DNA of 64,000 nucleotides from a virus (Duplodnaviria > Caudoviricetes): positions 1 through 64,000 of IMG/VR virus record IMGVR_UViG_3300031911_000003; one strand, 5' to 3'. Positions 3,896 through 63,757 of the stretch are shown piece by piece. Within the stretch, counting starts at the first letter, position 1, and every line of letters begins with the position of its first letter. Both the position numbers and the translations under genes were made by a program. Under the pieces are notes generated by a model. That model did not search any database, had not been told where the DNA came from, and worked only from the letters and a program-made list of their open reading frames with translations.

Positions 3896-3911
3896 CCGAA
3901 CCATCTATCGC

Positions 3912-4202
3912 ATGATGCGCGCCTCGTTTCTCTTGGCCATCTCCCTCGTAGCCTGCGGGCCGGCGCTGCGCGAGCAGCAGTTGCTCGCGGCGCGCGTCCA
4001 AGCCGCCGCCAAGTCGTGCAAGGCGAACCGACTGCGCTGCCAGAGCGCTGACCTCTGCGCCAGGCGCGCGCAGACCGCGCAGAGCGCTATTCAGAGCGCG
4101 CAGGAGGCGCGCTCGCGCGGTCAGGCTATCGCAGACCAGGAAGCGAACGCAGCGGGCTCCTACGCGGCCGCAGACAGCATCTGCAAGGCGGGTGGGTGGT
4201 GA
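3912..4202 (+). CDS. lipoprotein in lysis cassette (spanin-like?)
   Basis: Lipobox LVAC followed by an Ala/Gln helical region; ACCATC motif 7 nt upstream of ATG 3912. Confidence 0.6.
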   Translation: MMRASFLLAISLVACGPALREQQLLAARVQAAAKSCKANRLRCQSADLCARRAQTAQSAIQSAQEARSRGQAIADQEANAAGSYAAADSICKAGGW

Positions 4203-4351
4203 TCGCGCTAGCGGTGTTCTTCGACTCGCTGGCTGCGTGGTTCAAGAGCTGGCGCAGCGCCAAAGCGGGCGCCGAAGTCGCGGCGGGCAAGAGGGCCAAG
4301 GAAGAGACGGACGCTGCCGCAGCCGAGATCGCCGCGGAGCTCAAGAAGTGA
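4199..4351 (+). CDS. small membrane-anchored lysis-cassette protein
   Basis: GTG start overlapping the upstream TGA; MIALAVFFDSLAAWFKSWRSAKAGAEVAAGKRAKEETD... Confidence 0.5.
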   Translation: MIALAVFFDSLAAWFKSWRSAKAGAEVAAGKRAKEETDAAAAEIAAELKK

Positions 4352-4382
4352 TTGCGCGAGACGTAGTTGAGGCGTTACGCGG

Positions 4383-5747: not shown

Positions 5748-5749
5748 GA

Positions 5750-6503: not shown

Positions 6504-7388
6504 TTAGAGCGTGAACCCCGCTACGTGGATCGACAGGCTGGCGTTCGCGTTGCCAACGAGGTAATCGATTTGGAGCCCATTCACCAATGCATAAGGCACG
6601 AAAGCCGACGATGTGATACCCGTCGCCGACGTCTCCTGAATGAACACGTTCGTTGGTGTAGAAGTCCGTAGGGTCGCGGTGGTATTGGTCGTAGACGACC
6701 AACTAGGTCGCAGCAATGCGATCTGCGCCTCCGCTGGTATGATTCCAGCCAACGATACAGTTGCAGCGACGGTTGAATTACCTGCGTTGAGGACTCGGTT
6801 ATTGATGGAGTATTCAAAGTACCTATATTCCCCATCTACTTGAGTGTATTCGAGAAGAGCTCCGGCAGAAGAGGTGTAGAACGTCGAGACGAACATGTTG
6901 TCCGTCGTAGTCGAATCGTAGTTGAGGCCGACTTCCGGCGCGTTAGTCGAGACGCGGAAGCCCACGGCGCCACCGTTGTTGTAGGCGTAGACGTAGTAGC
7001 GCGTCAGGTTCGCAAGCGAGCCGCCGGCTAGCGCGGTCGGATCGATCGTCGATGCGGTAAGGTGCGGCAGCGTCACCCAGTTGCCGCCGGAGGTGACCTG
7101 CACTCCACCGAGCGGTTGAATGATCATGGAAGTCGACGAGACGCCTTTCACACGGCGCTTCACGCCGCCGCCGTGCAGCATCTGGCGCGCGCCGACGAGG
7201 CCGTTGACGAGCGGCTGCAGTGCGAGATCGCGCATGTTGGCTGAGCTCAGCGGGTCGAAGTTCGCCGGTCCCTGGATGGTGTCGGCGGCGGGGAAGGCTC
7301 CGTTTCCTACAAGGGGCGTGGTCATATCTGGAGATGGTTGCTCGCAAGAGGCCAGGGCAAGTAGAAAGGCAAGGGCTACGCGGTTCAT
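6504..7388 (-). CDS. tail-fibre-like protein with N-terminal lipoprotein signal; second start at 7325
   Basis: GGAGG SD before ATG 7388, lipobox LASC; internal ATG 7325 has ACCATC 8 nt upstream; follows the baseplate wedge gene. Confidence 0.65.
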   Translation of the reverse strand: MNRVALAFLLALASCEQPSPDMTTPLVGNGAFPAADTIQGPANFDPLSSANMRDLALQPLVNGLVGARQMLHGGGVKRRVKGVSSTSMIIQPLGGVQVTSGGNWVTLPHLTASTIDPTALAGGSLANLTRYYVYAYNNGGAVGFRVSTNAPEVGLNYDSTTTDNMFVSTFYTSSAGALLEYTQVDGEYRYFEYSINNRVLNAGNSTVAATVSLAGIIPAEAQIALLRPSWSSTTNTTATLRTSTPTNVFIQETSATGITSSAFVPYALVNGLQIDYLVGNANASLSIHVAGFTL

Positions 7389-8230: not shown

Positions 8231-8355
8231 CTATGCGAGGATGGTCCCTCACGGTCGAAAAGAACAGGAGGCGACGCTGCGCTGGCTCGATTACGGCTTA
8301 ACTACTTCCGCGCCGCACAGGACGCTGGCGCGGAAGTCTTATGCAGAGTGGCTGG

Positions 8356-9924: not shown

Positions 9925-10012
9925 GCGCAGTGATGGTCGCGCTTTACACAGCGTCGCAGAAATGAGAGTCTTCAAGACTCGCCGAAGTGGGCAGGTATTA
10001 AAGGAGGATCGT

Positions 10013-10882: not shown

Positions 10883-12088
10883 CTAGATGCTCTGCAGTAC
10901 GAGCTGCGAGGTCAGGACTGGCACCTGGTTGTACTGGATCGCCAGGTCCTGCGTCCCGCCGTTGATCTTCACGTCCGTCGCGTCGAGCACCACGCTGTTT
11001 GTCGTCCCCGCAGGTAGGCTTATGAGGCCGAGCACCCGCTCGTAGCTTACCCGGCCGAGCCTGCCGCCGCCGATCAGGAACGACCCGAACCAAGTGGCGA
11101 GGTTCCGGTTCACCGTGGCCAGGAACGCCGCGTTGTTGTAGGTAGCCTCGACGATGACCGTGCCGGACACCGTCACTGCAAGATTGACGGCGCTCGTCGC
11201 GGCGCAGCGCGCCGACTCCGATATGTTCGGGCCTCCCGTCTGCGTCGGCGAGAGGGCCAATTGGACTGCGGCTACTACCGACGGCGCTAGTGCTCCCGCC
11301 TCTCCCGCCACGATGACATCGACCCGCCCCGGATCGGTGAGGTCAAGGTTCGTCTCGACGCGGACGCGCGTCACCTCTTGACTGGCGTTGCGCGCGGCGG
11401 CTTCGTAGCCGGACTGCACCATCGTCGTGGGCTTAAACTGGCTGAGCGTCCCCCACTTCGTCACGTTGCGGCGCTGCAGGCTCGCGTCCTCCTCGGCTGG
11501 CGTGCCGCTCGCGCCGTACTGGTCTGCCTGCCAACCGGAAGGATTCGTCACCGTGACGCCCGCGAGGGTGCCGCGCACCCAGGTGTCGATCTCGCCGACG
11601 CCAGCGTTGTAGTCGCTGCCGACGTCCGCCGCCTCGACGTACACGCGAGCACTGCCACCGCGGGGGATCGTCACCGGATCGACCCCATTGGGCGCGACGC
11701 CTGAGTATTCCAGCCCACCGATGCCCACAGAGAACCCCACAGACAGCGGCGAGAACTTGAACGGCCCGAGGCCCCGCGGATCGGACAGCGTCACAAACCC
11801 ACTGGCCTTCACCCCAAGGAAGCGGAAGTCGTCAAAGAGCTGCTCGCTGAGGTTATCGAGGCCGGAGTCGCTCGCGGTCTGGTTGTAGCCCTGCGCGACG
11901 ACGTAGGCGCCGGCCTGGTTCTCCTGGTCCTGCGCGCGGCTCTCCACCTCGACGAGCGCGACGGGCAGCGACTCGGGTGCGTAGCTCTCGATCGCGGTGA
12001 AGCCAGCCGCCTCGAGCCTGTCGAAAGTCTCCTGTTTGACCTCTTCGTAGGTCGGCGGATTTAGTAGTTGCTCGACGGTAAGAGCCAT
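10883..12088 (-). CDS. baseplate J-like (Mu gp47) protein
   Basis: GLDNLSEQLFDDFRFLGVKASGFVTL, EEDASLQRRN..KW, PGRVDVIVAG. Confidence 0.85.
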   Translation of the reverse strand: MALTVEQLLNPPTYEEVKQETFDRLEAAGFTAIESYAPESLPVALVEVESRAQDQENQAGAYVVAQGYNQTASDSGLDNLSEQLFDDFRFLGVKASGFVTLSDPRGLGPFKFSPLSVGFSVGIGGLEYSGVAPNGVDPVTIPRGGSARVYVEAADVGSDYNAGVGEIDTWVRGTLAGVTVTNPSGWQADQYGASGTPAEEDASLQRRNVTKWGTLSQFKPTTMVQSGYEAAARNASQEVTRVRVETNLDLTDPGRVDVIVAGEAGALAPSVVAAVQLALSPTQTGGPNISESARCAATSAVNLAVTVSGTVIVEATYNNAAFLATVNRNLATWFGSFLIGGGRLGRVSYERVLGLISLPAGTTNSVVLDATDVKINGGTQDLAIQYNQVPVLTSQLVLQSI

Positions 12089-12118
12089 GGTAGAGATGGT
12101 GAAGAGGAGAATTCTCAG

Positions 12119-13284: not shown

Positions 13285-13409
13285 TCCTCTTCGGCGGATC
13301 TGAGGTGTGGAAGACGAGCTCGCTCACGCGCCTGATGCTCCGCTTCTGGGACGCGATCGACGACGAGTGGCTGCGCCTGGCGGGCTACGTTTCCTGACCA
13401 TCTTCCGTC

Positions 13410-14078: not shown

Positions 14079-14213
14079 AATAGCCTGAGCGCCCTCCCTT
14101 ACACGAATGATCGAGCAGGTCAGCAACAGCCCCTGAACCTCAATCGTCTTCGAGCCTGATCGCGTAACCGCCTCGTAATTGCAGTAACTTCAACATTCTC
14201 ACCATCTCCTCTT

Positions 14214-15491: not shown

Positions 15492-16081
15492 CCCTCGTCG
15501 CTGTTGGGATTACAGATGGGCGTAGCGACGGCAGAGCCCATGTCTGGCGTGGTGTAATTCTCAAACCAAGCAATCACAGATGGATTCTCTGCGATCTGAA
15601 GACCAGCAAGGACGCCGATCAACAGGCAAACGAGCGCACTCGCCAGGGTGAATGTGGTCACGAAATTCGATCGCTCTTTGCGGAGCTTCGACACCATGTC
15701 GACTGCCGTTGCGGGCGCTTCGATTACTGGCACCACAGTCACGGGCAGGCGTGCCGCGACGGCCTTCTCGCGCTTGCTGATCTTCGCATGAGCCCGCTCG
15801 ACTTCGATCCTGCTTCGAGACGAGATATCGAAGGGAATAGCTACGGGTACGGGAAGCTCCTCGGGAATAGGCGAGAAGAGTACACCACCAAAGACGAAGG
15901 GTCGGAGGCTGGCGGCGCCCCTACGCACTTCCTTGTGGGGCGATTGTGCGAGCTCCGCGCGGCTTACGATTTGGCGTGATCCTTCTCTGGTCACAATCAC
16001 TTTGCTAGTTCGATACATCATTCTGACTACTCCGATCTGAGTTACTTTACGTTTTGTACTCCAAATCGGAGCTGCGCGCAA
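15482..16081 (-). CDS. hypothetical membrane protein
   Basis: One C-terminal hydrophobic helix; start uncertain. Confidence 0.4.
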   Translation of the reverse strand: MRAAPIWSTKRKVTQIGVVRMMYRTSKVIVTREGSRQIVSRAELAQSPHKEVRRGAASLRPFVFGGVLFSPIPEELPVPVAIPFDISSRSRIEVERAHAKISKREKAVAARLPVTVVPVIEAPATAVDMVSKLRKERSNFVTTFTLASALVCLLIGVLAGLQIAENPSVIAWFENYTTPDMGSAVATPICNPNSDEGCR

Positions 16082-16736: not shown

Positions 16737-18777
16737 TGCCGCCGACCTCCATAGCGGTGCGCTGCCAGCACATGCGGAAGACGCGCATCGCCACCGGCTC
16801 TAGCGCCGCTGCCAGGTCGTCCGGGTCCGCGCTGCCCGCGTAGAAGAGCTGCACCGGCACCGTGATGTTCGTACCGCCCATCTTGCGCTCGGGCACCATG
16901 TACTCGCCCCCCTTGTCCCCGACGACGGCCAGAGTTGGCGTGTTGACGTAGCCGCCGTCGCCGAACTTCGGCACGTCGGCGCCGCTGGCTGGGATCATCG
17001 AGGCGATGTCCTCTGCCTTCCCCATCGTGCCGCCGCGCAGCCAGGCTCCTACTCCCATGTCCTTTCCTTGCAAGACGTATTCGGAGCGCGCGGCGGCGAA
17101 CTGCGGCAAGAAGCTGTCGAGGCTTGAACCGCGCTTGGCGGCGAGCTCGGCGAGCATGTCTTTGCTGAAGCCGTACTTACTGAGATAGTCGACGCCGCCA
17201 GACTCACCTGGCTTCGAAAACGCCATTTCCTTCAGTCCAGCGACGGCAGCGCCTTTCATGCCCGCGAGGATGCCCTGGCCCAAGTAGGTCCCAACGTCGA
17301 TGAGGACGCCTTTCACGTTACTCAGGAATTCGCCTGGTTCGGCGTGCATGAGCTTGTCGAGCCACCCCCAGGCCTCCTTGAAGAAGCCGATGACCTTCTG
17401 CCCGAGCGCGCCGATGACGTTGATCACGCGTTCGATGTCGCTCGGTCGAATCTTCGCGAAACCGCCGAATATGCTGTCGGTGAGCCCGACGATGGTGTCT
17501 CGGAGTTTAGTACTCCCCATGACACCTTCGGTGAGCTTCGCCAGAAAACCATCGAAAGGCTTTCCGAACTCGTCTACACCACCGATGAGCGCTTTGAATC
17601 CCTTGGTGTTTACTAAGTCTATGCTCTTGAGCATATCGCCGAAGGCGTTCTTCGCGTTCGACAGCGCGCCCGTCAGGCTCTCCTTGCCGAACTTCTTGGC
17701 GAGCGAGCCGGGTCCCTCCTCGAGCTTCTGCCCTTCGTACATGGAGCCGATGGCAGCATTGAGCATGCTACCTACCTCAATATAACCAGTGCCTGCCAGA
17801 CCACGGATAGCCTTCAAAGCTTCGGTTTCACTAGCTTTTCCGGCTATAACAGCTTTCATCTGTTTCTGGCCTTCGCCACCTAATTCTCCCCGTGCATGTC
17901 TAGCCATAAGCTCAGGTATTCCTTGCTGTGCTTTAAGCTGCATGGCGATATCTTTGGCTCTGAATTTCGCTACACGGAGGGAATCAAAATCGTCGACTGT
18001 GGCTACCCCTTTCCCTTGGAGTCGACTGAACGCCTCGATGACGTTCCGTTCTACTCCAGGCTCGTCGAGGAACTTCGAGGCCTGGTCGGCGACGACGCGG
18101 TAAAGGAACTTCGACTGATCTGCGCTGAAACCCTGCGTGAGGAAAGTCTTGATTCCGCTTATGACCTTGTCTGTGTCGAGCGGCGTCTCGGACGCTAGCT
18201 TCTGCGCGTCGGCGAACAAGCCGCGAGCCTTCTCCATGTCGCCGCCGAGCATGTACGACATGCCTGTAAGGGCGTTCTGCCGGAACTCAGCCGCCTCGAC
18301 GACGCTGTCGAGCAGGCTCTTTCCGAGGTCGATTCCCCGGCCGACTACATCCTTGGCCAGCCCGAGCGGCCCGCCCATCATCGTCTTCATGACGGAGAAG
18401 CCGCCCGTGACGGTTTGCATCGCGTGCGCTGCGTAGGCAAGCGTGCGGGGCGAGAAGATGCGCTGCCAGATGCTGTCGAAACCCATGGCCGAGCGGCGCA
18501 TCTTGTCGATGTCGCCGCCAAGCTGCCGCAGGATCAGCGAAGTGTCTCGGCCGCTGACGCCCGCGCCCTTGAGCGCCGCCTTGACCTTGTCGACGTCGCC
18601 ACCCGCGGCCTTGAGCAGCTCGCGCGACTGCTTGAGGGTGACGAGAAAGGTCTGCTTGAGCGGATTCGCGCGCGCGAAGCTCTGCACGACGAAGGCGAGG
18701 TTCTTGAAATCGCTCGACGCCCCACGCGCGAGCTCACCGAGCTGTTTCAGTTCTACGTCGATTTCGTCGGATGCCAC
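16729..18777 (-). CDS. tail tape measure protein
   Basis: 682-aa Ala/Gly helical protein with LASETPLD..KVI and FGDGGYVNTPTLAVVGDKGGEY motifs; downstream of the tail chaperones. Confidence 0.85.
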   Translation of the reverse strand: MASDEIDVELKQLGELARGASSDFKNLAFVVQSFARANPLKQTFLVTLKQSRELLKAAGGDVDKVKAALKGAGVSGRDTSLILRQLGGDIDKMRRSAMGFDSIWQRIFSPRTLAYAAHAMQTVTGGFSVMKTMMGGPLGLAKDVVGRGIDLGKSLLDSVVEAAEFRQNALTGMSYMLGGDMEKARGLFADAQKLASETPLDTDKVISGIKTFLTQGFSADQSKFLYRVVADQASKFLDEPGVERNVIEAFSRLQGKGVATVDDFDSLRVAKFRAKDIAMQLKAQQGIPELMARHARGELGGEGQKQMKAVIAGKASETEALKAIRGLAGTGYIEVGSMLNAAIGSMYEGQKLEEGPGSLAKKFGKESLTGALSNAKNAFGDMLKSIDLVNTKGFKALIGGVDEFGKPFDGFLAKLTEGVMGSTKLRDTIVGLTDSIFGGFAKIRPSDIERVINVIGALGQKVIGFFKEAWGWLDKLMHAEPGEFLSNVKGVLIDVGTYLGQGILAGMKGAAVAGLKEMAFSKPGESGGVDYLSKYGFSKDMLAELAAKRGSSLDSFLPQFAAARSEYVLQGKDMGVGAWLRGGTMGKAEDIASMIPASGADVPKFGDGGYVNTPTLAVVGDKGGEYMVPERKMGGTNITVPVQLFYAGSADPDDLAAALEPVAMRVFRMCWQRTAMEVGGNG

Positions 18778-18778: not shown

Positions 18779-18804
18779 ACGAGAGATGGTCAGGTCAGCG
18801 ACGA
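18779..18804. repeat. 26-bp exact direct repeat, copy 1 (copy 2 at 43792-43817), containing the late motif
   Basis: acgagagatggtcaggtcagcgacga at both loci, each abutting a minus-strand start codon. Confidence 0.9.
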
Positions 18805-21628: not shown

Positions 21629-21686
21629 GATGCGGATGGTAGGAGGTACCAGATGACAGACAAATCAACGACTCAAGGATTTAAAA

Positions 21687-25327: not shown

Positions 25328-25343
25328 GATGGTCGGGACCATC
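25328..25343. promoter_or_regulatory. back-to-back ACCATC motifs (GATGGTC-GG-GACCATC) serving divergent starts 25320(-) and 25350(+)
   Basis: Inverted repeat; spacers of 8 and 7 nt to the two ATGs. Confidence 0.7.
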
Positions 25344-28363: not shown

Positions 28364-28379
28364 GCGAGAGGATGGTGGG

Positions 28380-30308: not shown

Positions 30309-30341
30309 GCCCGAGATGGTGGCGAGCCGCGCGCGCTCTGA

Positions 30342-30827: not shown

Positions 30828-30960
30828 GCTCTATATAAATTTCCAAATCCAATTCTATATATCTATATTCTACTCCATCTACTACACCATTAACTAAATA
30901 TAAGAAATATAAGAAGAATATAAGAGGGAGAAGAAAGGGAGGAGTGCAGTAGGGAAAAGT
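30828..30960. other. very AT-rich, strand-asymmetric segment (candidate replication origin) with three ATATAAGA repeats
   Basis: Pyrimidine-rich half followed by a purine-rich half; ATATAAGA at 30898, 30907 and 30918. Confidence 0.45.
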
Positions 30961-43791: not shown

Positions 43792-43817
43792 ACGAGAGAT
43801 GGTCAGGTCAGCGACGA
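43792..43817. repeat. 26-bp exact direct repeat, copy 2 (copy 1 at 18779-18804)
   Basis: acgagagatggtcaggtcagcgacga. Confidence 0.9.
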
Positions 43818-43874
43818 GCAGAGCTTCAGTGTGTTCGCGTTACTCGCCGCTGTCGGTGAACCCGTTCCACGACC

Positions 43875-46587: not shown

Positions 46588-48291
46588 TTACTTGCGCTCC
46601 ATGCGGATGTTGCGCGCGTCAGCCGGCGCGCTCGCTTGCTCGTTGACGACGACGGTGGCGCCGTTCGGGTTGAGGGGTCGGATCGGGCGCTCGGCCAGGC
46701 GATCGTTCATCGTGCTGCTCTCCACCGTCGCGCCGGGCCGGATGCCCGCAGCCGCGGAGCGGAGGCGCTCCACGTCGAGCCCACCGCGCCGGGCCATCAT
46801 CGCGAAGACGCCGTCGAGCGCCGGGTCGGCGCTGCGCGTCTCGCGGGCGGCGGGCGGCGGAGCCAGGACGGACGGTGGTGCAGTTCCGTCGCCGCTCCTG
46901 AGCGGCGCGGTTCGCGTCACCTGGGCAACGGCGCCGGCCACCTGAATCTTGAACGTCCGCAGCTGCTCGAGCGACCAGGGGCGCGAGGCGCGCTTGTTCT
47001 CGACGCTGCCGCGAACGTAGCCGACCGGATCCATGCCGAGCATCTCGGCCTCGAGGCCGGGCTCGAGGCCGGCATCGGAGGCGGCGATCTCGAGCACGAG
47101 CTTCTGCCGCTCACTGTCTTCGGTCTTGGCGGCGGCGGAGCGTTGCTCGCTGAGCATGCGCTTGTGCGCGGCCTCGACGGTCTGCATCGCGGCGAACTTC
47201 GTCCGCAGCTCGGCGGGCGTCTTGGCGATCTTGCCTCCGACGTCCGCGAAGGTCTGTTCCGCGTGCGGGAGGCAAGCGCGCTGGCAGGCGGCCCACTCCT
47301 TGGCCATCTCCTCGTCGCCGAGCTTCTCGGGCGCGGCGCGCATCATCGAGTTGAAGAGCGCGACGTCCTGCGCGGCATCGGCGTGCCCGCCCATCTCATC
47401 GATGGAGGCGGTCATGAGGTTCACCATGCCGAGCGCAGTCTTCATACACCCACGCGCACATTCCTTGAAGAAGGCGCGCAGCGACTCGTCAGAAGTCGCG
47501 GCCATCATCGCCAGCGCGTCGCCGGCAGACCGCATCTGGTCAGAGATCGACCAGCGGATCTGGTCGCGCAGCTCGGGGGTCAGCATCTTGAAAACTCCAG
47601 TCGTGAAGGCGAAAGGTTGCGCGTCACGCTTCGTGATGGTAGAAGAGGTAGTCCACGTCGTCTTGGGTCCAACTTGCTGCGGAGGTGCCAAATGCGCTAG
47701 TTTCGTAATTCCCGCGCGCTGCGCGGCGCGCAGCCCATCTTCGGCTGCGCGGACGCACAGGGCCATTGGGTTCGACGGCGTCGCGCAGCTCGAGCCCTCG
47801 CGGATTTTGTAGCGCTCGTAGACGAGCGTCGAGCCTGCGACGCCCGTAGCGAAGCACTGCCCGCACGGTCCCCATTTCGTCTCACCCTCACCGCCGCAGC
47901 CCTCACAGTCGCCGCCCTCGCCGAGCTCGACGCGCGTCGCACCCTCGATCGGGTCGAAACCGAGGGAGCAGCCACGCAAGAAACCCCGCACATGGTCCGC
48001 GTAAGTCTCGGCGGCGATCTGCTTGTCCATGTTGAAGCGCACGCGGACGCGGAAGCGCTCTGGCGACTGCTCGACGACCTGCACCATGTCGCCGAGGACG
48101 TTCCTGACACTGCCGCTCGCGTGCGTGTCGAGCCACGGCCTCGCCTCGCTGTGGAACTCGGCGCCCATAGGGTCTAGGCGCGTCCCGTAGGTGTCCCTGT
48201 GCGGGGTGACGAGGTCGAAGTCGAGCACGCCCTCAGGGAGAGTTTCGCCCTTTACGGGCGCGAAGAAGCTGTAGGCGCGGCGCATCTGCAT
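46588..48291 (-). CDS. prohead protease fused to scaffold
   Basis: DTYGTRLDP.G, WLDTH, LRGCSLGFDP, KIREGSSCATPSNP.AL; helical C-terminal scaffold. Confidence 0.8.
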   Translation of the reverse strand: MQMRRAYSFFAPVKGETLPEGVLDFDLVTPHRDTYGTRLDPMGAEFHSEARPWLDTHASGSVRNVLGDMVQVVEQSPERFRVRVRFNMDKQIAAETYADHVRGFLRGCSLGFDPIEGATRVELGEGGDCEGCGGEGETKWGPCGQCFATGVAGSTLVYERYKIREGSSCATPSNPMALCVRAAEDGLRAAQRAGITKLAHLAPPQQVGPKTTWTTSSTITKRDAQPFAFTTGVFKMLTPELRDQIRWSISDQMRSAGDALAMMAATSDESLRAFFKECARGCMKTALGMVNLMTASIDEMGGHADAAQDVALFNSMMRAAPEKLGDEEMAKEWAACQRACLPHAEQTFADVGGKIAKTPAELRTKFAAMQTVEAAHKRMLSEQRSAAAKTEDSERQKLVLEIAASDAGLEPGLEAEMLGMDPVGYVRGSVENKRASRPWSLEQLRTFKIQVAGAVAQVTRTAPLRSGDGTAPPSVLAPPPAARETRSADPALDGVFAMMARRGGLDVERLRSAAAGIRPGATVESSTMNDRLAERPIRPLNPNGATVVVNEQASAPADARNIRMERK

Positions 48292-48315
48292 CCTGCGCCG
48301 AGATGGTCGCCGAGG

Positions 48316-48345
48316 TTGACATTTCGTACTCAGCCGCGCTACGCT
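48316..48345 (+). promoter_or_regulatory. sigma70-type promoter TTGACA-N18-TACGCT
   Basis: Lies in the divergent intergenic region upstream of the plus-strand operon. Confidence 0.55.
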
Positions 48346-49688: not shown

Positions 49689-50413
49689 CTCTCGAGAGGC
49701 GCAGCGCGGCTGAGTGGCGGACGGCGCTGACAATTAGACGTACGATTCAACGCAACGCCTTCGCATTCATTACTGCGCCGCCATCTAGCTTTTCGCGTTT
49801 TGAGGAGCAAGCCAGACAAGTTGATCGCGCGATGGCACAAGTCCTGCAAGGCGCCTTTCCGTTCAGCAACGACTTCCGCGGATCGTCGCTCACCTCAGCG
49901 AACCTACACGCCGCGGTCGCTAGAATGCGCACAGCGCAGAACTCGCCCGACCTGCTCGTCATTGACGATCTAATCGCACCGACGGAGATGTCGCGACGAG
50001 TTGACTACATCCTCGGCCGCGTCAATCATCGTCGCCTGCGCCGAATTCCGTGGTCGCAGTGGCTTCCTGCGAAGCTTCGCCGCCTGCGTCGGAGCCTTGG
50101 GCCTCCGTTTCAACGGATTTTTCCTCATCTGTCACCGTTTGAGCGCCGCTATCCGTTTGGCTACCATTCGGACTGCCGGACTGGGCCACCTCCGCTTCCG
50201 CCTCGTCTAAGAAACCGGCTCGAACGAACCAGTGCGCCGCGGGAATGCCCGGCAGCGACTTCTCGAGCTGCGGCAGCGCGGCGGCGAGCGTCGCAATGCC
50301 GGAGGCCGTCTCCTGAGCGCGCTTTGAGCGCTGCTCCTCGCGGGCCGCCTGGTCCTCCGGGGGGGTCGCGTCGCGCCACACGTACGGCGCCAGTTCGAAG
50401 TCTCGGAAGTTGA
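49685..50413 (+). CDS. hypothetical protein; 3' part overlaps the portal gene antisense
   Basis: GTGA coupling at 49685; coding status beyond 50022 doubtful. Confidence 0.3.
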   Translation: MTLERRSAAEWRTALTIRRTIQRNAFAFITAPPSSFSRFEEQARQVDRAMAQVLQGAFPFSNDFRGSSLTSANLHAAVARMRTAQNSPDLLVIDDLIAPTEMSRRVDYILGRVNHRRLRRIPWSQWLPAKLRRLRRSLGPPFQRIFPHLSPFERRYPFGYHSDCRTGPPPLPPRLRNRLERTSAPRECPAATSRAAAARRRASQCRRPSPERALSAAPRGPPGPPGGSRRATRTAPVRSLGS

Positions 50414-51686
50414 ACCACGTGATCCAGCGCGTGAGCTGCGAGCGCAGCACGCCGCTGCACGGCTCCCACACGACGCGGTCTGCGCCCGTCTCGGGATCGC
50501 GGTATGTGCGGCGTCGCGCGTCCCAGAACCATGAGGCGCTCTCGCCGTACTTCTGCCAGAGAGTCTCCTTGTGGACAACGGCCTGTTTGAATCCGCCGGT
50601 CTGCCCCACGGAGGTCATGTCCTGCCCGAGGTAGACGAGCAAGATGCGCCGCAGGATGCGCTTCTCGGTATCGCTGAACGCCTCCCAGCCGCTCCCAGAC
50701 GTGTGTATGAGCTCCACTTCCTCGAGCCGCTTGCCGTCGAGCATGCGCAGGGGGATAACGGCGCCGCTGCCGACGCGGGCGATGAGCTGCGCCGAGGTCG
50801 GCACCTGGCCGGGTCCACCCGCCTGGTCGGCGTGCGGGAAGTTCGCGTCGGCGAAGTATTTGGTGAATCCGAGGCCGAAGCGCTCCGTGAACGCCTGGTT
50901 CGTGAGGAAGTTGAAGAGGTCGCCGATGAAGTCGAGGCCCAGCGAGTAGACCGCGCCGTAGATCCAGGGGTTCCGGTTCGCGGCTTTCGAGAGCACCCAG
51001 CGGCCCATGCCCGGCTCGACGACGAGCAGCCCCTTGTTTATGGTTGTCGCGCAGAAGTCGCCGCCGTCTACGCTGCGGTCGTTGCCACGGTAGAAGTATT
51101 GCGTCTGTGACGGGTGCCAGGGCTTGAGCACCGGCAGCCAGAACCGCTGCCGGCCGTCGCGGCGCTCCTCCCAATCAGCGCCCATAATGCCCTGGCCCAT
51201 CTGCAGGCGGTCGTCGTGGAAGTTACGCAGCGTCGCGTCGGGGTAGACGTCCTGCTCGATCTCGGCGAACCAGTCGCGCACCCATCGCGCGCGACGGCAC
51301 TTGGGGCGGCGGCAGTCCTCGCCGTGCTCGACGACGCACGCGGCCGACACGTGCCTCGGCAGGAGACTGTTCACGCCCTCCCAGCGGACGTTCAGCGCGT
51401 CGGCGATGACTGGATGCAGCCGGAAGTCGTCGGCGAGAAGCCCCGCTGCGCCGAACGCGCCGCCCGCCATGGACGAGATCGCGGCCTTGGCGCTGTCGAC
51501 GTTCCAGCCATAGACGTCTCGCTGCCCAAAGCCCTGCATCGTCGGGACCTGCGCGATGCGTCCCGTCTGCGGCTCGCGCGGTGGCTTGGCAACAACGCCC
51601 GTCGGCGAGACTGGGAGTAGGCCGCTCGCTGCGCGGTGCAGTAGACTGGCAGCACGCAATCGCAGGTCATGCAGGGTGTAGGCCAT
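50022..51686 (-). CDS. portal protein (DUF935 / Mu gp29-like)
   Basis: LPVLKPWHPS, LVYLGQDMTS....GFKQAVVH, QLTRWITWFNF; ACCATC 9 nt upstream. Confidence 0.85.
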   Translation of the reverse strand: MAYTLHDLRLRAASLLHRAASGLLPVSPTGVVAKPPREPQTGRIAQVPTMQGFGQRDVYGWNVDSAKAAISSMAGGAFGAAGLLADDFRLHPVIADALNVRWEGVNSLLPRHVSAACVVEHGEDCRRPKCRRARWVRDWFAEIEQDVYPDATLRNFHDDRLQMGQGIMGADWEERRDGRQRFWLPVLKPWHPSQTQYFYRGNDRSVDGGDFCATTINKGLLVVEPGMGRWVLSKAANRNPWIYGAVYSLGLDFIGDLFNFLTNQAFTERFGLGFTKYFADANFPHADQAGGPGQVPTSAQLIARVGSGAVIPLRMLDGKRLEEVELIHTSGSGWEAFSDTEKRILRRILLVYLGQDMTSVGQTGGFKQAVVHKETLWQKYGESASWFWDARRRTYRDPETGADRVVWEPCSGVLRSQLTRWITWFNFRDFELAPYVWRDATPPEDQAAREEQRSKRAQETASGIATLAAALPQLEKSLPGIPAAHWFVRAGFLDEAEAEVAQSGSPNGSQTDSGAQTVTDEEKSVETEAQGSDAGGEASQEATATTEFGAGDDD

Positions 51687-51940
51687 CGCCCGAAGATGGT
51701 CGCCGAGCTTGACGCAGCGACGGGAAGTACCGAAGATACTTCAATGCTTGCAGCAAATATAACTTGCGACACCTATGTAGGTGGTTTGTTCATAAGCTTG
51801 TGTGAAGACGCAAGCATTCGCGCTGACTTGTGGACTTGGCATTTCCTCTATCATTCAATCGATCGTTGGTCATTTCCATGGAACGGGTTCCTAGAGTTAT
51901 TCGTCCACCGAGAGTGGAAGCGTTTGTCGGTGGTGTTTTC

Positions 51941-57136: not shown

Positions 57137-58873
57137 ATGAAGCGCGTACTTTCTACCGACATCCCCAACACGATCAGCGGTGAGCGACGGAAGGAGTGTA
57201 AGAAGACGTTCATCGTCGACCCAACGTGTGTCGTCTTCGCCATCGGGCCGGACAGCTGGCTGCGCGACGGGCGCGAGGACATCGCCGTCTCGGCGTCACT
57301 CGTCGGCTCGCTCATCCTCGCCAACGACACCGACAACCGCATCGACGGCCCGCGGGTCGGCGAGGGCCACGGCAACGCCGCCCGTGTACCCGCTGACAAG
57401 ACGGCGCAGGTGCCAGGCTACGACACGGCCGGCAACCCCGTGCTCTGGGGGGCGCTGTCGAGCGTCCAGCTGACGGTGATGGGCACCGACACCGAGCCCG
57501 TTTACGTCATCTCGGCGGCGGGGCGGCAGACGGCCAAAGCTAGCGAATACTTGACGGGCCTGCTCCGCCGGCTCCGTGAGCTCTATCAGCGCGTGTACAC
57601 GGCTCTCGAGCGAGAGCGAGAGGAGTGCCGAGCGAACCTCGCCTCGCTCCTCAAGCGCAAGAACCTACAGCCGGCTGAGCAAGAGCGATTGTTTGAATTG
57701 CAGGCTGCTGACGAAACCTTCAAGAAGCGTACACTCGATCAGCAGGCGCTTGAAGACGTACAGGCCGAGGCGCGCAAGGTTCGCGACCCGGTGCTAGCGG
57801 AGCTGTCGGACGCGCACTTCCTGGCCATCTTCCGAGGCGTCGCCGGCTTGAAGTTCGGCAAGCCGCTCGTCGGGCGCACCTACAGCGCCGTCTTCCACCT
57901 ATCCGTGGGCTACGTGCCGGACCTGCCGTCCGACTACCGGAGCCTCGAGCGCTCGAAGCTCGCGAACTTCCAAGTGCCCAGCCCCCCCAGCGCCGAGGCA
58001 GACAACACGCGCCGCCTCGTACGTGAGTACGTCCTGAACGGCGTATGCGCCGACGAGGTGCAGGCCCTCGAGCGCGTCCGGCAGTACGTCCGGCCGCTCA
58101 TGGCCGTGGGCGCCGAGCAGCCACCGAGCGCCCAGTACGTCATGCAGCTCTACCGCCTGGACATGCTCGTGCCGGAAGCGAAGAAGGCGGTGGACGAGCA
58201 GGCGGACCCACGCAAGATGCTGGCGCTGTTCGAGAAGCTGACGAAGCGCCTGTTCCGCGAGGCGCTCGAAGAAGTCGAGCGCGGCAACCTCAAGGTTCAC
58301 CTCACCTGTAACGAGATGTCTGACGATGAGCAACGCGCCGAGCTCGCAAACATCCTGAACCCACCGAAGCGCGGGCGCACCGACAAGCCGAAGTTAAAAA
58401 CTCAGTCTGTGGTTCCTGTCCGATCGGATCGCGCGCCGATCCTCGCCAAGCTCGCGGCGCTGCGCAGCCCAATGAACTCACTGTCCGACGACCAGCGCCG
58501 CGAGGCGGCGGCCGTCGCGGCTTGGGAGCGCTTCCAGGCGGGCGATGCCGCCGCGCTCCGAGACTACCCGCATCTGGCCAGCGCGGTCGCTGACGCGGAA
58601 GCTGAGGTCGACAGCGAGGATACGCCGTTGCAGATGGCTTTGGACTTCCTCGACGGCTGGAACGGGCGGGACAAGATCGAGTTGCAGGCGTTCGCTGAGC
58701 GCCAGCCGAAAGAGGACGGCGAGCTCATGGCGTGGCGCGCGCGGGGGAAGACACACGAGGCTAAGCGCTTGGTGGCGAAGAAGCTCATAGAGGACGCGGC
58801 GGCCAAGATGCCGAAGACCGTCAAGCCCGACGAGCGCGCGAACTGGATCAGAGAGGAGTTGGAGGCGAAATGA
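57137..58873 (+). CDS. large hypothetical protein (possible divergent ParB-like N-terminus, helical C-terminus)
   Basis: ATGA-coupled to a small ORF at 56973..57140; VYVISAAGRQ loosely resembles ParB IxxGxRR. Confidence 0.55.
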   Translation: MKRVLSTDIPNTISGERRKECKKTFIVDPTCVVFAIGPDSWLRDGREDIAVSASLVGSLILANDTDNRIDGPRVGEGHGNAARVPADKTAQVPGYDTAGNPVLWGALSSVQLTVMGTDTEPVYVISAAGRQTAKASEYLTGLLRRLRELYQRVYTALEREREECRANLASLLKRKNLQPAEQERLFELQAADETFKKRTLDQQALEDVQAEARKVRDPVLAELSDAHFLAIFRGVAGLKFGKPLVGRTYSAVFHLSVGYVPDLPSDYRSLERSKLANFQVPSPPSAEADNTRRLVREYVLNGVCADEVQALERVRQYVRPLMAVGAEQPPSAQYVMQLYRLDMLVPEAKKAVDEQADPRKMLALFEKLTKRLFREALEEVERGNLKVHLTCNEMSDDEQRAELANILNPPKRGRTDKPKLKTQSVVPVRSDRAPILAKLAALRSPMNSLSDDQRREAAAVAAWERFQAGDAAALRDYPHLASAVADAEAEVDSEDTPLQMALDFLDGWNGRDKIELQAFAERQPKEDGELMAWRARGKTHEAKRLVAKKLIEDAAAKMPKTVKPDERANWIREELEAK

Positions 58874-59212
58874 GAACGATCACGCAGAGATCTGAAGGGA
58901 ATTGGAGCCGCGGCGGAGTCCGTGCGGTTCGCTAAACCGAAGGTGCAGCGCCGGGTCGCGAAGAATCCGCACTACGCCGATCGCTTCCGCGGGGCGCACG
59001 CGGCGAAGGTCGCAGCCGCGCAGAAGCGACGCGCCGAACTGCTCGCGAAGCAAGCAGAAGAGGCGCGCAAGGCCCAAGAGAAGGTCGCAGCTTCAAAAGA
59101 GACGGCAGATAACGCTCGAATCGTACGAAGCCTGACCATCCGCTCCACTGAACGCTTGACAGGTCGTACCCGAATCTGCAACAGTTCGAGCTGTGGAAAC
59201 CACGCAGCATGA
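58870..59212 (+). CDS. basic hypothetical protein with a probable frame break near 58890
   Basis: GGAGG + ATG 58870 stops early, while the long ORF lies in another frame. Confidence 0.35.
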
Positions 59213-60287
59213 TCGCAGTAGTACGTTCGCCAGATACTTCAAGCGCTGGCTCGGGCGCCGCCTAGTCGAGCGCCCGAAGCCGCAGCCTCCCGCGCCACCG
59301 CCGAAGCCCAGCAAGCACGCGCGCCTGCGTGCGGAGCACAGGCACCTCCACATCTCGGCCGATCTACGAGCCCGCGCGACGAGCAGGCGACAGCTCGCGC
59401 CAATCGATCCGCAACTCGCGCGCATCATCGCAGAGCGCCGGATGGGTCGGCACCCACGCACCCAGAAGCCTCACCCACTGCCCGCGAGCTGCCTGAAGAA
59501 GTGCGGCGTCCGAGACTGCGCGCACGCGCAACCTCGCGCACTGCTCAGACTCCGCGACGAGTACGCCGCCGCGAACTACGATCTAGCGCATCGAGCGGCG
59601 GACAAGCAGTGGCAGCGCAACCAGCACCTCGAGCGGGAGATTGTGCCGTGCGTCTACCACAACACCGCCGAACCGAAGAAGTGCCGCTGCCGAGGGCGCC
59701 GGGAGTACCTCTGCCAACCCGACCTCGAGCATCTCGCGTACATCGGTCTGCTCGACGCGATCCTCTACTTCGACAAGGACAAGGCCGGCTGTCTCTCGTC
59801 TTACGCTGTCCACAAGATGAAGTTCTCGATGCTGACGCTTTTGCGTCAAACGCCTGTCTACTACCCGCCAGACCTGCTCCGCGACCGCCGAGACGTGGGC
59901 GCGCTGCGCAAGACTCTGTGTCGAGAGCCGACCGAAGCTGAGATGGTGGTTAAGCTGGCGGAGCGGGGTGCCTGCACTGCTGAGCGAGCGCGGCTCGCGA
60001 TGAACTGCTACTACGGCAATGAGCGGAAGAGCGTCGAGGAGCTGCATGAGCAGTACTTTGGTCGGACCTCGCGGGAGGATCGCCGCGCACGTAGGTCGCG
60101 CGGGGAGACGTTCGTCGAAAACCTGTCCATCGAGCAACCCCGCCGTGGAGAGGATTCAGACGGGGACGTGATCGAGGCCATTGCGTCGCTGCCCGCGGAG
60201 CTGCGAGCAGACGCGCAGAGGGCTCTCGGCGGGCGATCGAAGCTATCCGACGCCACTCTCGGCGCGCTGCGCGAGGCGCTGCTCTAG
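59193..60287 (+). CDS. sigma70-family RNA polymerase sigma factor
   Basis: DLEHLAYIGLLDAILYFDKDK..CLSSYAVHKMK (region 2), LCREPTEAEM (region 3), VIEAIASLP (start of region 4). Confidence 0.75.
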   Translation: METTQHDRSSTFARYFKRWLGRRLVERPKPQPPAPPPKPSKHARLRAEHRHLHISADLRARATSRRQLAPIDPQLARIIAERRMGRHPRTQKPHPLPASCLKKCGVRDCAHAQPRALLRLRDEYAAANYDLAHRAADKQWQRNQHLEREIVPCVYHNTAEPKKCRCRGRREYLCQPDLEHLAYIGLLDAILYFDKDKAGCLSSYAVHKMKFSMLTLLRQTPVYYPPDLLRDRRDVGALRKTLCREPTEAEMVVKLAERGACTAERARLAMNCYYGNERKSVEELHEQYFGRTSREDRRARRSRGETFVENLSIEQPRRGEDSDGDVIEAIASLPAELRADAQRALGGRSKLSDATLGALREALL

Positions 60288-60577
60288 CGCCGGCACCCGG
60301 CACACCTGCCGCCGTTGCACTTCCCGCACGATATCACGACGTTGCCGAGCTCGTACTTGCCGCCGTCGTGGCCGCAGATCGGGTAGCGGTCGACCTGCCA
60401 CCTGCTCGACGAAGCGGCGAAGCTGCGCTTGCCACAGTGGTGGCAGCGCACGCGGAGCTGCCCACGGTGCAGGTATCCGTGCGCCGAGACGAGGGCCGCG
60501 CGGCGTCTGCGCCTGGCTTCAGCGCTGCCGCGCGTATCTACGCTGCGGTGATCCTCACCACCACGCTTCCACATCAC
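60284..60577 (-). CDS. HNH endonuclease
   Basis: CHHCG...VDRYPICGHDGGKYELGNVVISCGKCN. Confidence 0.7.
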   Translation of the reverse strand: MMWKRGGEDHRSVDTRGSAEARRRRRAALVSAHGYLHRGQLRVRCHHCGKRSFAASSSRWQVDRYPICGHDGGKYELGNVVISCGKCNGGRCAGCRR

Positions 60578-61473
60578 CGCACCTTCAGGATCTTGTCGAC
60601 GAGCTGCACCACGTTCTGCGGCAGCGGGCCGACGACGAAGAGGTACTGCCGTAGGAAGCTCTCGAGCTGTCGAACCGAACGTTGCAGTAGCTGTAGTACT
60701 GACTCCGACATCATGGCCTCGAAGTCAACCAGCTGCGCCTCGTCGCACTCCTCGATCTGCACGTCGAACGTCGTCGAGGGCAACTGCTCGCCGAAGTTGC
60801 CCGCGACGTAGTAACGGCAGGTCCGCATCTTCTGATGTGAGGCGTCGTGCGGCACACACACGACGTCGGCCGGATCGACGCGGCAGACGACGATCCGCTC
60901 GCCGCAGTAGCTGCGTGCATACTCCAGGCTCCCGACGTGTAGCCCCGTGTGACAAGCGTGGTTCGGATCGTCGCTAATCTCGTTGCGCGGCATCTGCACC
61001 CAACTGCCCGGTCTGTTGCAGATCTTGCCGCTGTGCTTGTCGAGATAGTCTGCGCGCACACCCTTGTACGCGAGGAAACGCCCGTCTGGCTCGATGGGTA
61101 TGCCGACGTGATCGAGGAAGGCCCACAGGCTGTCGACGCTGCGCTTCGACGGGTTTTGCGCCAGGCGCTCGTGGAAGCGGAGCAGCGGCTCGGAGTCGCC
61201 CCCGACCTCCTTCGTCTCGAACACGCGTCGCGCGAACCCGCCGTGCATTGGCTTGCCGTCGAAGAGTAGTTCCGCGCCGCGCAGCTCGAATCGCGTGCGC
61301 GACCACGCGGCGACGCTTTGGGCTGCACTCGCGATGTGGCGCACAGCCTCCTCGAAGTCCCGTCGTTCGAGGGCCGCGCGCAACTGCGGCGCGTTCGGCG
61401 CGTCACTCCGCACCACGTAAGTCTTGCCACAGTGGACTATCGTGATTTGATCTTTCGTCGCCGTGAATCGCAT
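60574..61473 (-). CDS. rIIB: rIIB-like protein
   Basis: DGRFLAYKGV, MPRNEISDDPNHACHTGLHVGS..Y, VDPADVVCVP.D...KMRTCRY. Confidence 0.9.
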   Translation of the reverse strand: MRFTATKDQITIVHCGKTYVVRSDAPNAPQLRAALERRDFEEAVRHIASAAQSVAAWSRTRFELRGAELLFDGKPMHGGFARRVFETKEVGGDSEPLLRFHERLAQNPSKRSVDSLWAFLDHVGIPIEPDGRFLAYKGVRADYLDKHSGKICNRPGSWVQMPRNEISDDPNHACHTGLHVGSLEYARSYCGERIVVCRVDPADVVCVPHDASHQKMRTCRYYVAGNFGEQLPSTTFDVQIEECDEAQLVDFEAMMSESVLQLLQRSVRQLESFLRQYLFVVGPLPQNVVQLVDKILKVR

Positions 61474-63317
61474 GTATCTGTCATCCTTATATATTCGAGC
61501 CATTGAATCGAGTGCTTATCGACCAGCGACCGGAGGCCGTACGTTTTGAGCAGCGGATATTTCCCGAGTGCCGCAGCAACTACAGCCTTGCGCGATGCCG
61601 GATCATCTGGTAGCCGCTGCGACAGCCAGCAAACTGCACGGTCTGTGTAGCGATGCGGCTTCGCTGCCCTCACGAGCAGTTGCGAAAGCGGGTGCTCGGC
61701 TCCAAGCGTTGCGGCTACCTTCGCCACATCGCTCTCGTCGACCTCACCGATCTCCGCCACCCAACGGAGCCGCTCGACGTCCTCGCGGGCGCCAGGCTGG
61801 CCAGCGAGCACTTCGGCGAGGACGGTCATCCACTGGCCGAGCTCGACGCCGACTCGCACCTTCTTGTAACCGTAGACTTCTGGCATCTCGAGGCCGAACG
61901 CACTGAGCAGGTCGCGGCACTCATGGATCTGGTGGTAGTTCGTGTCGAACCTGTCGAGGTGGACGTACAGGTCTTCAGGCTGCGGCGCGCGCTCTACCGC
62001 CTCCCAGTTCGACGACAATGGGCGCTTGAACTCATAGGTGCAAAGTCTGAACATGCTGCGCCGCGCGTTCGGGTTCGCGCCGCGCCTGGGTGAGCGCTCT
62101 GGTCGCGTCCAAGACAGCTCCGAAGTCTTTACTATCGGGATGCCCTCGATGCCCGCAGCTCTGACAGCCGCCGCCACCGCGGCCTCTTCAGGTGGCCTGT
62201 GGTCATAGCCGTAGACGACGTAGTCCGTCGCTGACAGCGCGAAGCCTTTGAGTCCGCGCCTGTCGTCGCGCAGAACGATGCGCGCCGCATCGTCGAGCTC
62301 GATCGTTTCTCGCACCTTGCGACCGACTTTGAGTGTGAACGACCCTGAGATCGAGTATTTGCCGTTCACCCGCGGTATCAGCGGCAGGTCTAAGCCACCG
62401 TACTTCGACAGCGCGAGCTTCTGCGTCCACGGCGACAGCGATTCGACGCTGCGAATCAGCTCGAGCACGAAGCCGTCGATCGCCGCGCAGATCGCCGCTT
62501 CGAGAGCACCGCGCGTCTTCTCGCTGTACTTGAGCTGCTCGCGCGAGGCCGCGATGTGCAGCGCGCCGATCTCGAAGCGCAGCGCGCAGCCGACGTTTCG
62601 CGCGTAGTGTGGAAGCTTAAGCTGCGACAGGTCGATGGGATACGGCACGCAGCCCATGACTGCGGTCCACCTGCCGTACGGCTTTGGCGTCCAGCTGACG
62701 TCGGGTAGTTTCGCGCAAATATCAGGCAGCGGGTCGAAGTACTTGAACAGGTTCTCGGCCTTAGACCCGAACTCGCCGAGGTCTTCCCGTCGCACCGCCA
62801 CCTGAATCTCGAGGCCGGTGTCGTCGCTGTCGAACTCGTCGAGAAGGCGAACCTCACCACGCTCGCTGACGTCGAGCGTGCAGACGTACGTGCGGCACTT
62901 GCCCTCGCAGCGCGACACGACGGTGAAGCTGTCGGCGTAGGCGAAACCGCTCTTGCTGCCAATACCGAGCATCCCGACCTGCCCGCTGTCCGCGCGCTTC
63001 GTCGAGGCGCCGTACTGCGTGAAGAGCTCGAACACCTCCCGCTTCGAGAGGCCGCGCCCGAAGTCGCGAATCGAGAGCGTCTGGTCCTCGAGCGTCGGCA
63101 GCCTGACTCGGATCGGCACGTCGCCCTTGCCCGCCTCGCGGTGCGCGTCCCAAGCGTTGGCGCCGTACTCGCGCAATACCGCCAACACCTTGTCGCTGTA
63201 GAGCGTGTCGCGCAGCACCGTCATGAGGTGTGCCTCGTCGCCGCGCGAGATGCCGAAGCCCGCTCGCTCGCCCGAGTCGCAGGAGTCGACGCTGCGGTCG
63301 AAGGTCTGCGGGATCAC
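61437..63317 (-). CDS. rIIA: rIIA-like protein (GHKL ATPase)
   Basis: LYSDKVLAVLREYGANAWDAH, IRDFGRGL, YGASTK, GMLGIGSKSGFAYADSFTV; GTGA coupling at 63317. Confidence 0.9.
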   Translation of the reverse strand: MIPQTFDRSVDSCDSGERAGFGISRGDEAHLMTVLRDTLYSDKVLAVLREYGANAWDAHREAGKGDVPIRVRLPTLEDQTLSIRDFGRGLSKREVFELFTQYGASTKRADSGQVGMLGIGSKSGFAYADSFTVVSRCEGKCRTYVCTLDVSERGEVRLLDEFDSDDTGLEIQVAVRREDLGEFGSKAENLFKYFDPLPDICAKLPDVSWTPKPYGRWTAVMGCVPYPIDLSQLKLPHYARNVGCALRFEIGALHIAASREQLKYSEKTRGALEAAICAAIDGFVLELIRSVESLSPWTQKLALSKYGGLDLPLIPRVNGKYSISGSFTLKVGRKVRETIELDDAARIVLRDDRRGLKGFALSATDYVVYGYDHRPPEEAAVAAAVRAAGIEGIPIVKTSELSWTRPERSPRRGANPNARRSMFRLCTYEFKRPLSSNWEAVERAPQPEDLYVHLDRFDTNYHQIHECRDLLSAFGLEMPEVYGYKKVRVGVELGQWMTVLAEVLAGQPGAREDVERLRWVAEIGEVDESDVAKVAATLGAEHPLSQLLVRAAKPHRYTDRAVCWLSQRLPDDPASRKAVVAAALGKYPLLKTYGLRSLVDKHSIQWLEYIRMTDTCDSRRRKIKSR

Positions 63318-63709
63318 TGCAGGTCCTCGTCTTCCCAACCTTCGCAGAGGTCGCAGAGCACGAAGAAGCCTGTAATACTTCGAGATGCCATACTTTCGGG
63401 GAGGCCGAACCAAGCATCGTTGAGCAGATCCAAAATTACAGACGCGGCACCCAGTCGAAGGGCTTCATCGTAGCGCTCGACGGGCTTACCTTCAAAATTC
63501 TGCTCGATGTCGTTGCAGATGACATTACAGGCGTCTTGCGCTGCTCGCGCAGTGACAGGTGTTGAAAGTTGCATCGCGCGTGCGGGCATTTCGACCTGCA
63601 GTGGACCTACTGCGACGCTCACCTTCGATGCTGGGTGGTACTTCTCAACAATGGCACGCAGCGCGACGGCGTTCGCCTTAACTTTGTCAAACCATTCAGC
63701 AGAATTCAT
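63314..63709 (-). CDS. hypothetical protein
   Basis: GGAGG SD before ATG 63709. Confidence 0.55.
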   Translation of the reverse strand: MNSAEWFDKVKANAVALRAIVEKYHPASKVSVAVGPLQVEMPARAMQLSTPVTARAAQDACNVICNDIEQNFEGKPVERYDEALRLGAASVILDLLNDAWFGLPESMASRSITGFFVLCDLCEGWEDEDLQ

Positions 63710-63757
63710 CTCTAATCCTCCTCTACTGCCGACCATCCTCCTCGAAAGTACTACACT

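Follow-up and report, generated by a model that had tools for sequence, protein, structure and literature searches.

In the phage genome of IMG/VR virus record IMGVR_UViG_3300031911_000003 (Duplodnaviria; Caudoviricetes), the hexamer ACCATC recurs at a short, nearly fixed distance before start codons of genes that lie mostly in morphogenesis blocks. We propose that this box is a one-box, -10-type late promoter that would give rise to leaderless or nearly leaderless mRNAs, a reading to which we assign a probability of about 0.7 from the sequence evidence set out below. The source is a single contig of 75,195 bases with a G+C content of 63%, and the window referred to throughout is its first 64,000 bases. 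The same phage encodes a member of the sigma-70 family that probably reads the box, and relatives with about 50% identical proteins preserve the hexamer before three of these genes.

The ACCATC box at gene starts

The window contains 36 copies of ACCATC, against 19.3 +/- 4.1 in dinucleotide shuffles, none of 100 of which reached 36, and the whole genome contains 38. Seventeen of the 38 lie on the coding strand 6–10 nucleotides (nt) before the ATG or GTG of a long open reading frame (ORF) with a positive coding score, where only about 0.1 background copies would be expected to coincide with a gene start by chance (Table 1). The spacer between box and start codon is 6 nt at six sites and 7 nt at seven, with one site each at 8 and 9 nt and two at 10 nt. 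The 16 copies listed in the initial annotation are all present before such ORFs, and the fixed short distance described there stands, although each of its spacer values is one base larger than our recount of the intervening bases. The positional enrichment proposed at the same time is pronounced: ACCATC is the top hexamer within 20 nt before 75 gene starts, with 16 occurrences seen and 0.28 expected (p ~1e-23; three of the 16 starts had been chosen using the box, and the count without them is at least 13), and Shine–Dalgarno (SD)-type words rank next. The shuffles and the positional statistics together rule out a chance origin of the association between box and start.

The base after the hexamer is T or C (ACCATC[T/C]) in 15 of the 17 start-linked copies. 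Of the other 21 copies, which lie mostly within genes and on either strand, 12 have a G in this place (ACCATCG). No convincing one-mismatch variant of the box was found before gene starts, AACATC before 41230 being the sole marginal case. The earlier observation that the sites share no -35-like element also held, as over the 45 nt that precede the 17 sites no column was informative, whether for a -35-like or for any other shared upstream element. At 11 of the 17 sites the ORF has no possible start earlier than the codon linked to the box, and homologues of the portal gene and of the genes for the proteins of 567 and 344 amino acids (aa) align from residue 1–3. At 7325 the box precedes an internal ATG, and the upstream ATG 7388 of the same gene carries a GGAGG SD site. 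For the gene starting at 3912, ORF 3015-3782 (-) was considered as a neighbour and rejected as non-coding (score -34.5); its actual neighbour is 3495-3755 (+).

The genes that carry the box tend to stand at the head of transcription units. In at least six cases (12088, 21628, 25320, 25350, 48291 and 51686) the box gene directly follows a strand switch, and the others have upstream gaps of 33–156 nt or more, two of the larger gaps being incompletely annotated, with 18777 and 69198 as exceptions. Another 28 genes, among them cistrons that immediately follow box genes, have GGAGG or GAGG SD sites, and 14 of these 28 overlap the upstream gene or lie within 10 nt of it, compared with at most one or two of the 17 box genes (Fisher p = 0.003; 0.0005 for the window alone). 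Five non-structural starts that the initial annotation had contrasted with the box genes (676, 10013, 38673, 41323 and 56638) do carry SD-like sites. In a typical unit, the box gene 48291 is followed by 46586 (SD; 143 aa) and then by 46148 (SD; the Mu gpT-like capsid gene), and the same order, box first and SD afterwards, is seen in the relatives. The 29-bp gap between the divergent genes 25320 (-) and 25350 (+) holds two boxes and no other candidate signal. Scans for sigma-70 promoters and intrinsic terminators returned no more hits than in shuffled sequence.

The box is also biased towards one class of gene. It stands before 15 of the 39 genes in morphogenesis blocks and before 1 of the 36 elsewhere (p = 1.4e-4), rather than at equal frequency in the two, and this gene content suggests that the box genes are expressed late. 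Their original description as structural or lysis genes could be followed only in part: the portal, baseplate and sheath-like labels are supported, the tape measure and adaptor have weak matches and most of the others are without a family match; about half of the labels were not verifiable. One copy, at genome position 69182, heads a gene of the replication block and lies within the 3′ end of a small GIY-YIG-like ORF. This ORF (genome 68869-69199, +; L008 5869-6199) has a GIY-YIG-like N terminus (YRVYALRD...YIGRT), and its TGA overlaps GTG 69198.

The bases between box and start codon can be compared with what is known of transcription initiation. Bacterial RNA polymerase prefers to start at a purine that follows a pyrimidine (Y(-1)R(+1)), 7–8 nt after the -10 element. 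All 13 sites with a 6–7-nt spacer have a pyrimidine immediately before the start codon, compared with 33 of 60 other genes (p = 0.0013). Where the spacer is 8–10 nt (four sites), position 7 after the box is a pyrimidine and position 8 a purine, a Y7–R8 step that predicts leaders of 1–3 nt. Read as nACCAT, the box has an A and a T with the same four-position separation as A-11 and T-7, the -10 bases that are flipped out by sigma-70-family factors, and the start codon follows after 7–9 nt.

As a separate observation, a sequence of about 26–30 nt, tcgtcgctgacctgACCATCtctcgt, precedes both the tape-measure-like gene and the gene of the 344-aa protein (window 18779-18808 and 43792-43821), which suggests the duplication of a promoter region.

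Conservation in relatives and the phage sigma-family protein

Six relatives, L001–L006, were available for comparison (one genome-collection contig and five metagenome contigs, with portals 40–54% identical). The analysis of related genomes suggested in the initial annotation showed that, at about 50% protein identity, ACCATC is invariant before the homologues of the portal, 567-aa and 344-aa genes, and that the flanks diverge. In L004, a segment of about 45 nt with ACCATC at its end is present twice; one copy lies 7 nt before an ATG, and the second is followed by a GAGAGG SD site and, after 21 nt, by an ATG that opens a lipoprotein signal peptide.

Box copies are also found at greater distances from starts. 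In six genomes (the window and five relatives), the 567-aa gene contains a further ACCATC, which precedes by 32–48 nt an ATG that is in frame and SD-led. This copy encodes Thr-Ile in the window and part of His-His-Pro in the relatives, and since the reading frame differs between them, the hexamer is conserved at the nucleotide level. This copy looks like a candidate internal promoter for a nested C-terminal product, and by the same comparison the head-module gene probably yields, in addition to the full-length protein, a nested 332-aa C-terminal product from ATG 47586, resembling the nested protease/scaffold genes of other phages. Only two intergenic copies in the window do not adjoin a start, and both point at the next gene. 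One is the ACCATCC that had been noted upstream of the tentative TTG of terL, the large terminase gene, which we confirmed and which is a candidate promoter with a short leader; the other precedes the sigma gene and is possibly a leadered copy. ACCATC also occurs near the 5′ end of the L004 sigma ORF. Across the window and its relatives, the box thus stands 20–52 nt before some starts, three of them SD-led, a distance too far for a ribosome-binding site (RBS).

Two other sequence features accompany boxes in these genomes. At the portal and 567-aa genes, the box is preceded at a distance of 7–12 nt by GTCAAG/C, a motif that the window and the relatives have in common and that may be the site of a head-gene-specific accessory factor; GTCAACCTCG also overlaps the tentative terminase TTG at 63758. 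In L004, palindromic CCCCAT...ATGGGG repeats (12050-12112, 15985-16045 and 18038-18100) precede three ACCATC boxes, and they have no equivalent in the window.

The protein encoded from 59193, originally suggested to be a phage sigma factor, is a member of the sigma-70 family in which region 2 is supported by profile, Pfam and fold comparisons. We assembled a family of 14 members, consisting of the window protein, 12 database homologues (some on contigs of 64–80 kb) and the L004 homologue. Thirteen of the 14 match Pfam Sigma70_r2, and none has a Pfam match to sigma region 3 or 4 (for region 4, none at E <= 0.1). Searched against the PDB, the family profile retrieved sigma factors only, with FliA (7e-7) and RpoS at the top. 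The AlphaFold model of the protein (mean predicted local distance difference test score 72.6) likewise matched only sigma factors in Foldseek. Residues 71-221 superpose on sigma domain 2, with a Z score of 10.2 to WhiG and of 9.5 to the SigE N-terminal domain (root-mean-square deviation (r.m.s.d.) 1.9), and the model matches Thermus sigma domain 2 bound to -10 DNA with a Z score of 8.6. A region 3 is probably present as well. At the C terminus of the model, a disordered linker leads to three short helices (320-363); alignments of the whole chain extend to residue 364, but with an r.m.s.d. of 13–15.

A homologue of this protein is present in L004, the most distant of the relatives that use the box, and the co-occurrence suggests that the 59193 sigma probably reads ACCATC. 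The metagenome-assembled genome that holds L001 gave no close phage sigma homologue, with a weak sigma-like match at E 7e-4, and no sheath-like gene with these queries.

The surroundings of the sigma gene are recorded here for their own sake. It adjoins a gene for a 578-aa protein (window 57137-58873, +) that has a homologue near the L004 sigma gene (31% identity) and no family in Pfam, PHROGs or the ESM Atlas. Also adjoining are rIIB (PHROG 1.8e-62) and an rIIA-like GHKL ATPase gene (window 60574-63413, -).

Competing explanations of the box

On the promoter reading, ACCATC, usually with the following T or C, would be the sole recognisable element of the late promoters and would occupy the -10 position. 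RNA polymerase carrying the FliA/WhiG-like sigma would melt the DNA at the box and start 7–8 nt downstream, which is predicted to be the A or G of the start codon itself at 13 sites and a position 1–3 nt ahead of it at four. Each late unit would then have its first gene translated without a leader or nearly so, and its downstream cistrons through ordinary SD sites. The copies before the terminase and sigma genes and inside the 567-aa gene would produce transcripts with short leaders.

Several points weigh against this proposal. ACCATC is G+C-rich and atypical for a -10 sequence, box copies inside genes show no avoidance, and a spacer of 6–10 nt is equally expected of an RBS-like signal. The argument from the pyrimidine before the start codon is a moderate one (p roughly 0.003), because pyrimidines make up 64% of the spacer bases overall. 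The box genes 18777 (12-nt gap) and 69198 lie directly against the gene before them. Leaderless GTG starts are poorly translated in E. coli, GTG is the start codon at 4 of the 17 box sites, and efficient leaderless translation in the host of this phage cannot be assumed. Finally, sigma protein and box are linked by co-occurrence in two lineages only.

Some of the same facts can be read as pointing to the ribosome. If ACCATC acted in the mRNA as an SD-independent translation-initiation signal, recognised by the ribosome or by a phage factor on transcripts that start further upstream, then the preservation of an SD-like distance and the lack of an SD site at the 17 box starts would be accounted for. 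So would the RBS-like placement of the boxes of 18777 and 69198 directly behind an upstream gene; the box of 18777, the only box gene in the window with a short same-strand gap, has its first base in common with the TGA stop of that gene. We nevertheless regard such a signal as unlikely. Tightly coupled internal cistrons, which use SD sites, almost never carry the box, and the long distances described above include those to three SD-led starts. The conserved 3′ tail of 16S rRNA reads GAUCACCUCCUUA, a general tail that may differ from that of the host itself, and it offers no complementarity to ACCAUC, which would need GAUGGU. Six bases without a tolerated mismatch would also be unusual for pairing with rRNA, and in the 29-bp divergent gap the 5′ untranslated region of each gene would have to begin inside the opposite gene. 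In every computational test that we ran, the promoter reading fits better than a ribosome-binding signal; it is favoured by unit-head position, module bias, start-site context, conservation and the RBS-incompatible distances.

Cleavage of RNA would account for the fixed distance to the start codon and the absent SD sites equally well: an endoribonuclease of the phage or the host could cut long late transcripts just downstream of ACCATC and so produce leaderless mRNAs. We find this scarcely probable at all, as no nuclease candidate was identified, the units at strand switches would still need promoters and share no other signal there, and the co-occurring phage sigma would be left without a target. 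Taken more broadly, the idea that the box is a late-gene-specific mRNA signal, acting in ribosome recruitment or RNA processing through a phage factor or a phage-modified translation machinery, seems to us quite unlikely; if true, virion genes would have a translation-initiation code of their own, in a host that elsewhere relies on SD sites. The strict invariance of the hexamer would also suit a specific regulatory protein that binds DNA or RNA, for instance an activator of late genes or a repressor of translation, for which ACCATC would be the operator rather than a polymerase element, and the GTCAAG/C conserved upstream of two boxes shows that accessory factors may exist. That the box is solely an operator is nonetheless highly improbable: with a site that ends only 6–7 nt from the start codon, a separate -10 element and a transcription start would not fit in before the ORF, there is no other shared promoter-like element, and sigma-70 promoter scans were at chance level. 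A promoter for a single-subunit phage polymerase was considered too and rejected, with only 6–7 bp conserved and no such polymerase found.

Genome content, known parallels and significance

The positions of the boxes, of the motif upstream of two of them and of the genes with family assignments are collected in Table 1. Family support was also obtained for genes encoding the rIIA-like ATPase, a ribonucleotide reductase and a helicase, and a large terminase, a primase-polymerase and a family A DNA polymerase were found, the polymerase gene spanning the contig ends. The genome carries a gene for a POT/MFS-family transporter, an unusual cargo for a phage (Pfam PTR2 2e-28, MFS_1 3e-16). An exact AT-rich repeat of 88 bp is present at window 30862-30949 and genome 68539-68626 (L008 5539-5626), one copy in each of two large AT-rich intergenic regions (30550-31270 and 68157-68860) that may be early promoter or origin regions. 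Searches with the 567-aa and capsid proteins found no relatives among 50,697 genomes of isolate phages, and searches of IMG/VR with the portal, a portal alignment and a sigma alignment found none either. tRNA genes, sought as host clues, were absent, and the binning of L001 with a gammaproteobacterial metagenome-assembled genome is weak host evidence.

Table 1 Boxes, associated motif and assigned genes; positions are those of the window unless marked otherwise
Feature	Position	Strand	Start codon and spacer	Remarks
ACCATC box	3900..3905	+	6 nt before ATG 3912	96-aa protein with lipoprotein-type signal peptide
ACCATC box	7333..7338	-	7 nt before ATG 7325	In-frame internal ATG of gene 6504-7388
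ACCATC box	8240..8245	-	9 nt before ATG 8230	251 aa
ACCATC box	9932..9937	-	7 nt before ATG 9924	343 aa; divergent from SD-led 10013 (+)
ACCATC box	12095..12100	-	6 nt before ATG 12088	Baseplate J-like; unit head at strand switch
ACCATC box	13397..13402	+	7 nt before GTG 13410	222 aa
ACCATC box	14201..14206	+	7 nt before GTG 14214	159 aa
ACCATC box	18785..18790	-	7 nt before GTG 18777	682 aa, tape-measure-like
ACCATC box	21635..21640	-	6 nt before ATG 21628	180 aa; heads long tail unit at strand switch
ACCATC boxes	25328-25333 and 25338-25343	- and +		Back to back in 29-bp gap between divergent 25320 (-) and 25350 (+)
ACCATC box	28371..28376	-	7 nt before ATG 28363	205 aa
ACCATC box	30315..30320	-	6 nt before ATG 30308	179 aa, weak head-tail adaptor match
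ACCATC box	43798..43803	-	6 nt before ATG 43791	344 aa; kept before L003 and L004 homologues
ACCATC box	48302..48307	-	10 nt before ATG 48291	567 aa; first gene of head unit
ACCATC box	51695..51700	-	8 nt before ATG 51686	Mu-like portal; kept in all relatives covering the site
ACCATC box	genome 69182 (outside window)	+	before GTG 69198
ACCATC	47635..47640	-	48 nt before ATG 47586	Inside 567-aa gene (46588-48291); ATG in frame and SD-led
ACCATCC	59135..59140	+	52 nt before GTG 59193	Intergenic, before sigma gene
ACCATCC	63732..63737	+	20 nt before TTG 63758 (tentative)	Intergenic, before large terminase
GTCAAG/C	48308-48322, 51701-51715	-		L001 3355-3372, 5857-5872; L004 9965-9988
Baseplate J-like	10883-12088	-		Family match (baseplate J)
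Tape-measure-like protein, 682 aa	16729-18777	-		Weak PHROG match
Sheath-like protein, 946 aa	22480-25320	-		DUF2586
Head-tail adaptor, 179 aa	start 30308	-		Weak PHROG match
POT/MFS-family transporter	32568-33716	-
Mu gpT-like major capsid protein	45075-46148	-		Family support
Mu-like portal	50022-51686	-		Pfam Portal_Mu
Phage sigma-70-family factor	59193-60287	+		Nearest FliA/WhiG

The arrangement can be set beside several known systems. Late promoters of phage T4 have the box TATAAATA, which is read by the phage sigma gp55. The two systems are alike in having a single near-invariant -10-type box without a -35 element, present in many copies across the late region on both strands, and a phage-encoded, here putative, reader of the sigma family, gp55 being reduced essentially to sigma region 2 function. 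They differ in the box itself, which is ACCATC here and not TATAAATA, in the SD-bearing leaders of T4 mRNAs, in the need of T4 for gp33 and the sliding clamp gp45, a dependence that is not known here, and in the sigma, which here is FliA/WhiG-like and not gp55-like. Promoters of the sigma-28 group (FliA/WhiG/SigD; solved structure 6PMI) have the -10 sequence GCCGATAA and also need a -35 element (TAAA). FliA and WhiG are the nearest solved relatives of the phage sigma, and the WW dyad of region 2.3 is missing from all of them. The two -10 sequences are both fairly rich in G+C and have a common C.AT core, CCAT here as opposed to CGAT there, and region 4 was not detected in the phage protein by Pfam.

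Leaderless genes of Actinobacteria and Deinococcus-Thermus have a -10 box directly upstream of the ORF (PMC4633059). They resemble the arrangement proposed for the box genes in the fixed short distance of the -10 element, the lack of SD sites and the use of both ATG and GTG as 5′-terminal starts; there, however, the box is the housekeeping TANNNT and is used genome-wide, whereas here it is phage-specific and largely confined to one gene class. By analogy, the closest described case appears to be the late transcription of Thermus phages (Lalka27a, YS40 and P23-45). Lalka27a has sixteen late promoters with a conserved -10 box, TAGGGT, and without a -35 element; transcription starts 6 bp downstream of the box, most transcripts are leaderless, their first base being the A or G of the start codon; the promoters are dense, with opposed ones in short divergent gaps (bioRxiv 10.64898/2026.04.20.719267). 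The same authors reported leaderless transcripts of YS40, and their preprint infers a phage-encoded factor that modifies the host polymerase (bioRxiv 10.64898/2026.04.20.719267). The present phage differs in that ACCATC does not have the TANNNT form unless read as nACCAT, that it has its own sigma, and that no equivalent of the -25 C of Lalka27a and no detectable similarity between the phages was found. The Lalka27a promoters were mapped, whereas those proposed here are predicted from sequence.

What is new relative to the known one-box cases is the G+C-rich box, the phage's own FliA/WhiG-like sigma without a detectable region 4, and the lineage. In practical terms, the box settles 17 start codons and the operon map in a genome that could not otherwise be annotated, and it can serve as a sequence rule by which late genes are recognised in related metagenomic contigs; box and sigma together form a compact candidate orthogonal sigma/promoter pair. 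If the promoter reading is right, the one-box and leaderless strategy, so far mapped in Thermus phages, would extend to a G+C-rich box that is not of the TANNNT form and to a FliA/WhiG-like sigma, and a single six-base box and one phage sigma would organise the whole late programme in a lineage without cultured relatives.

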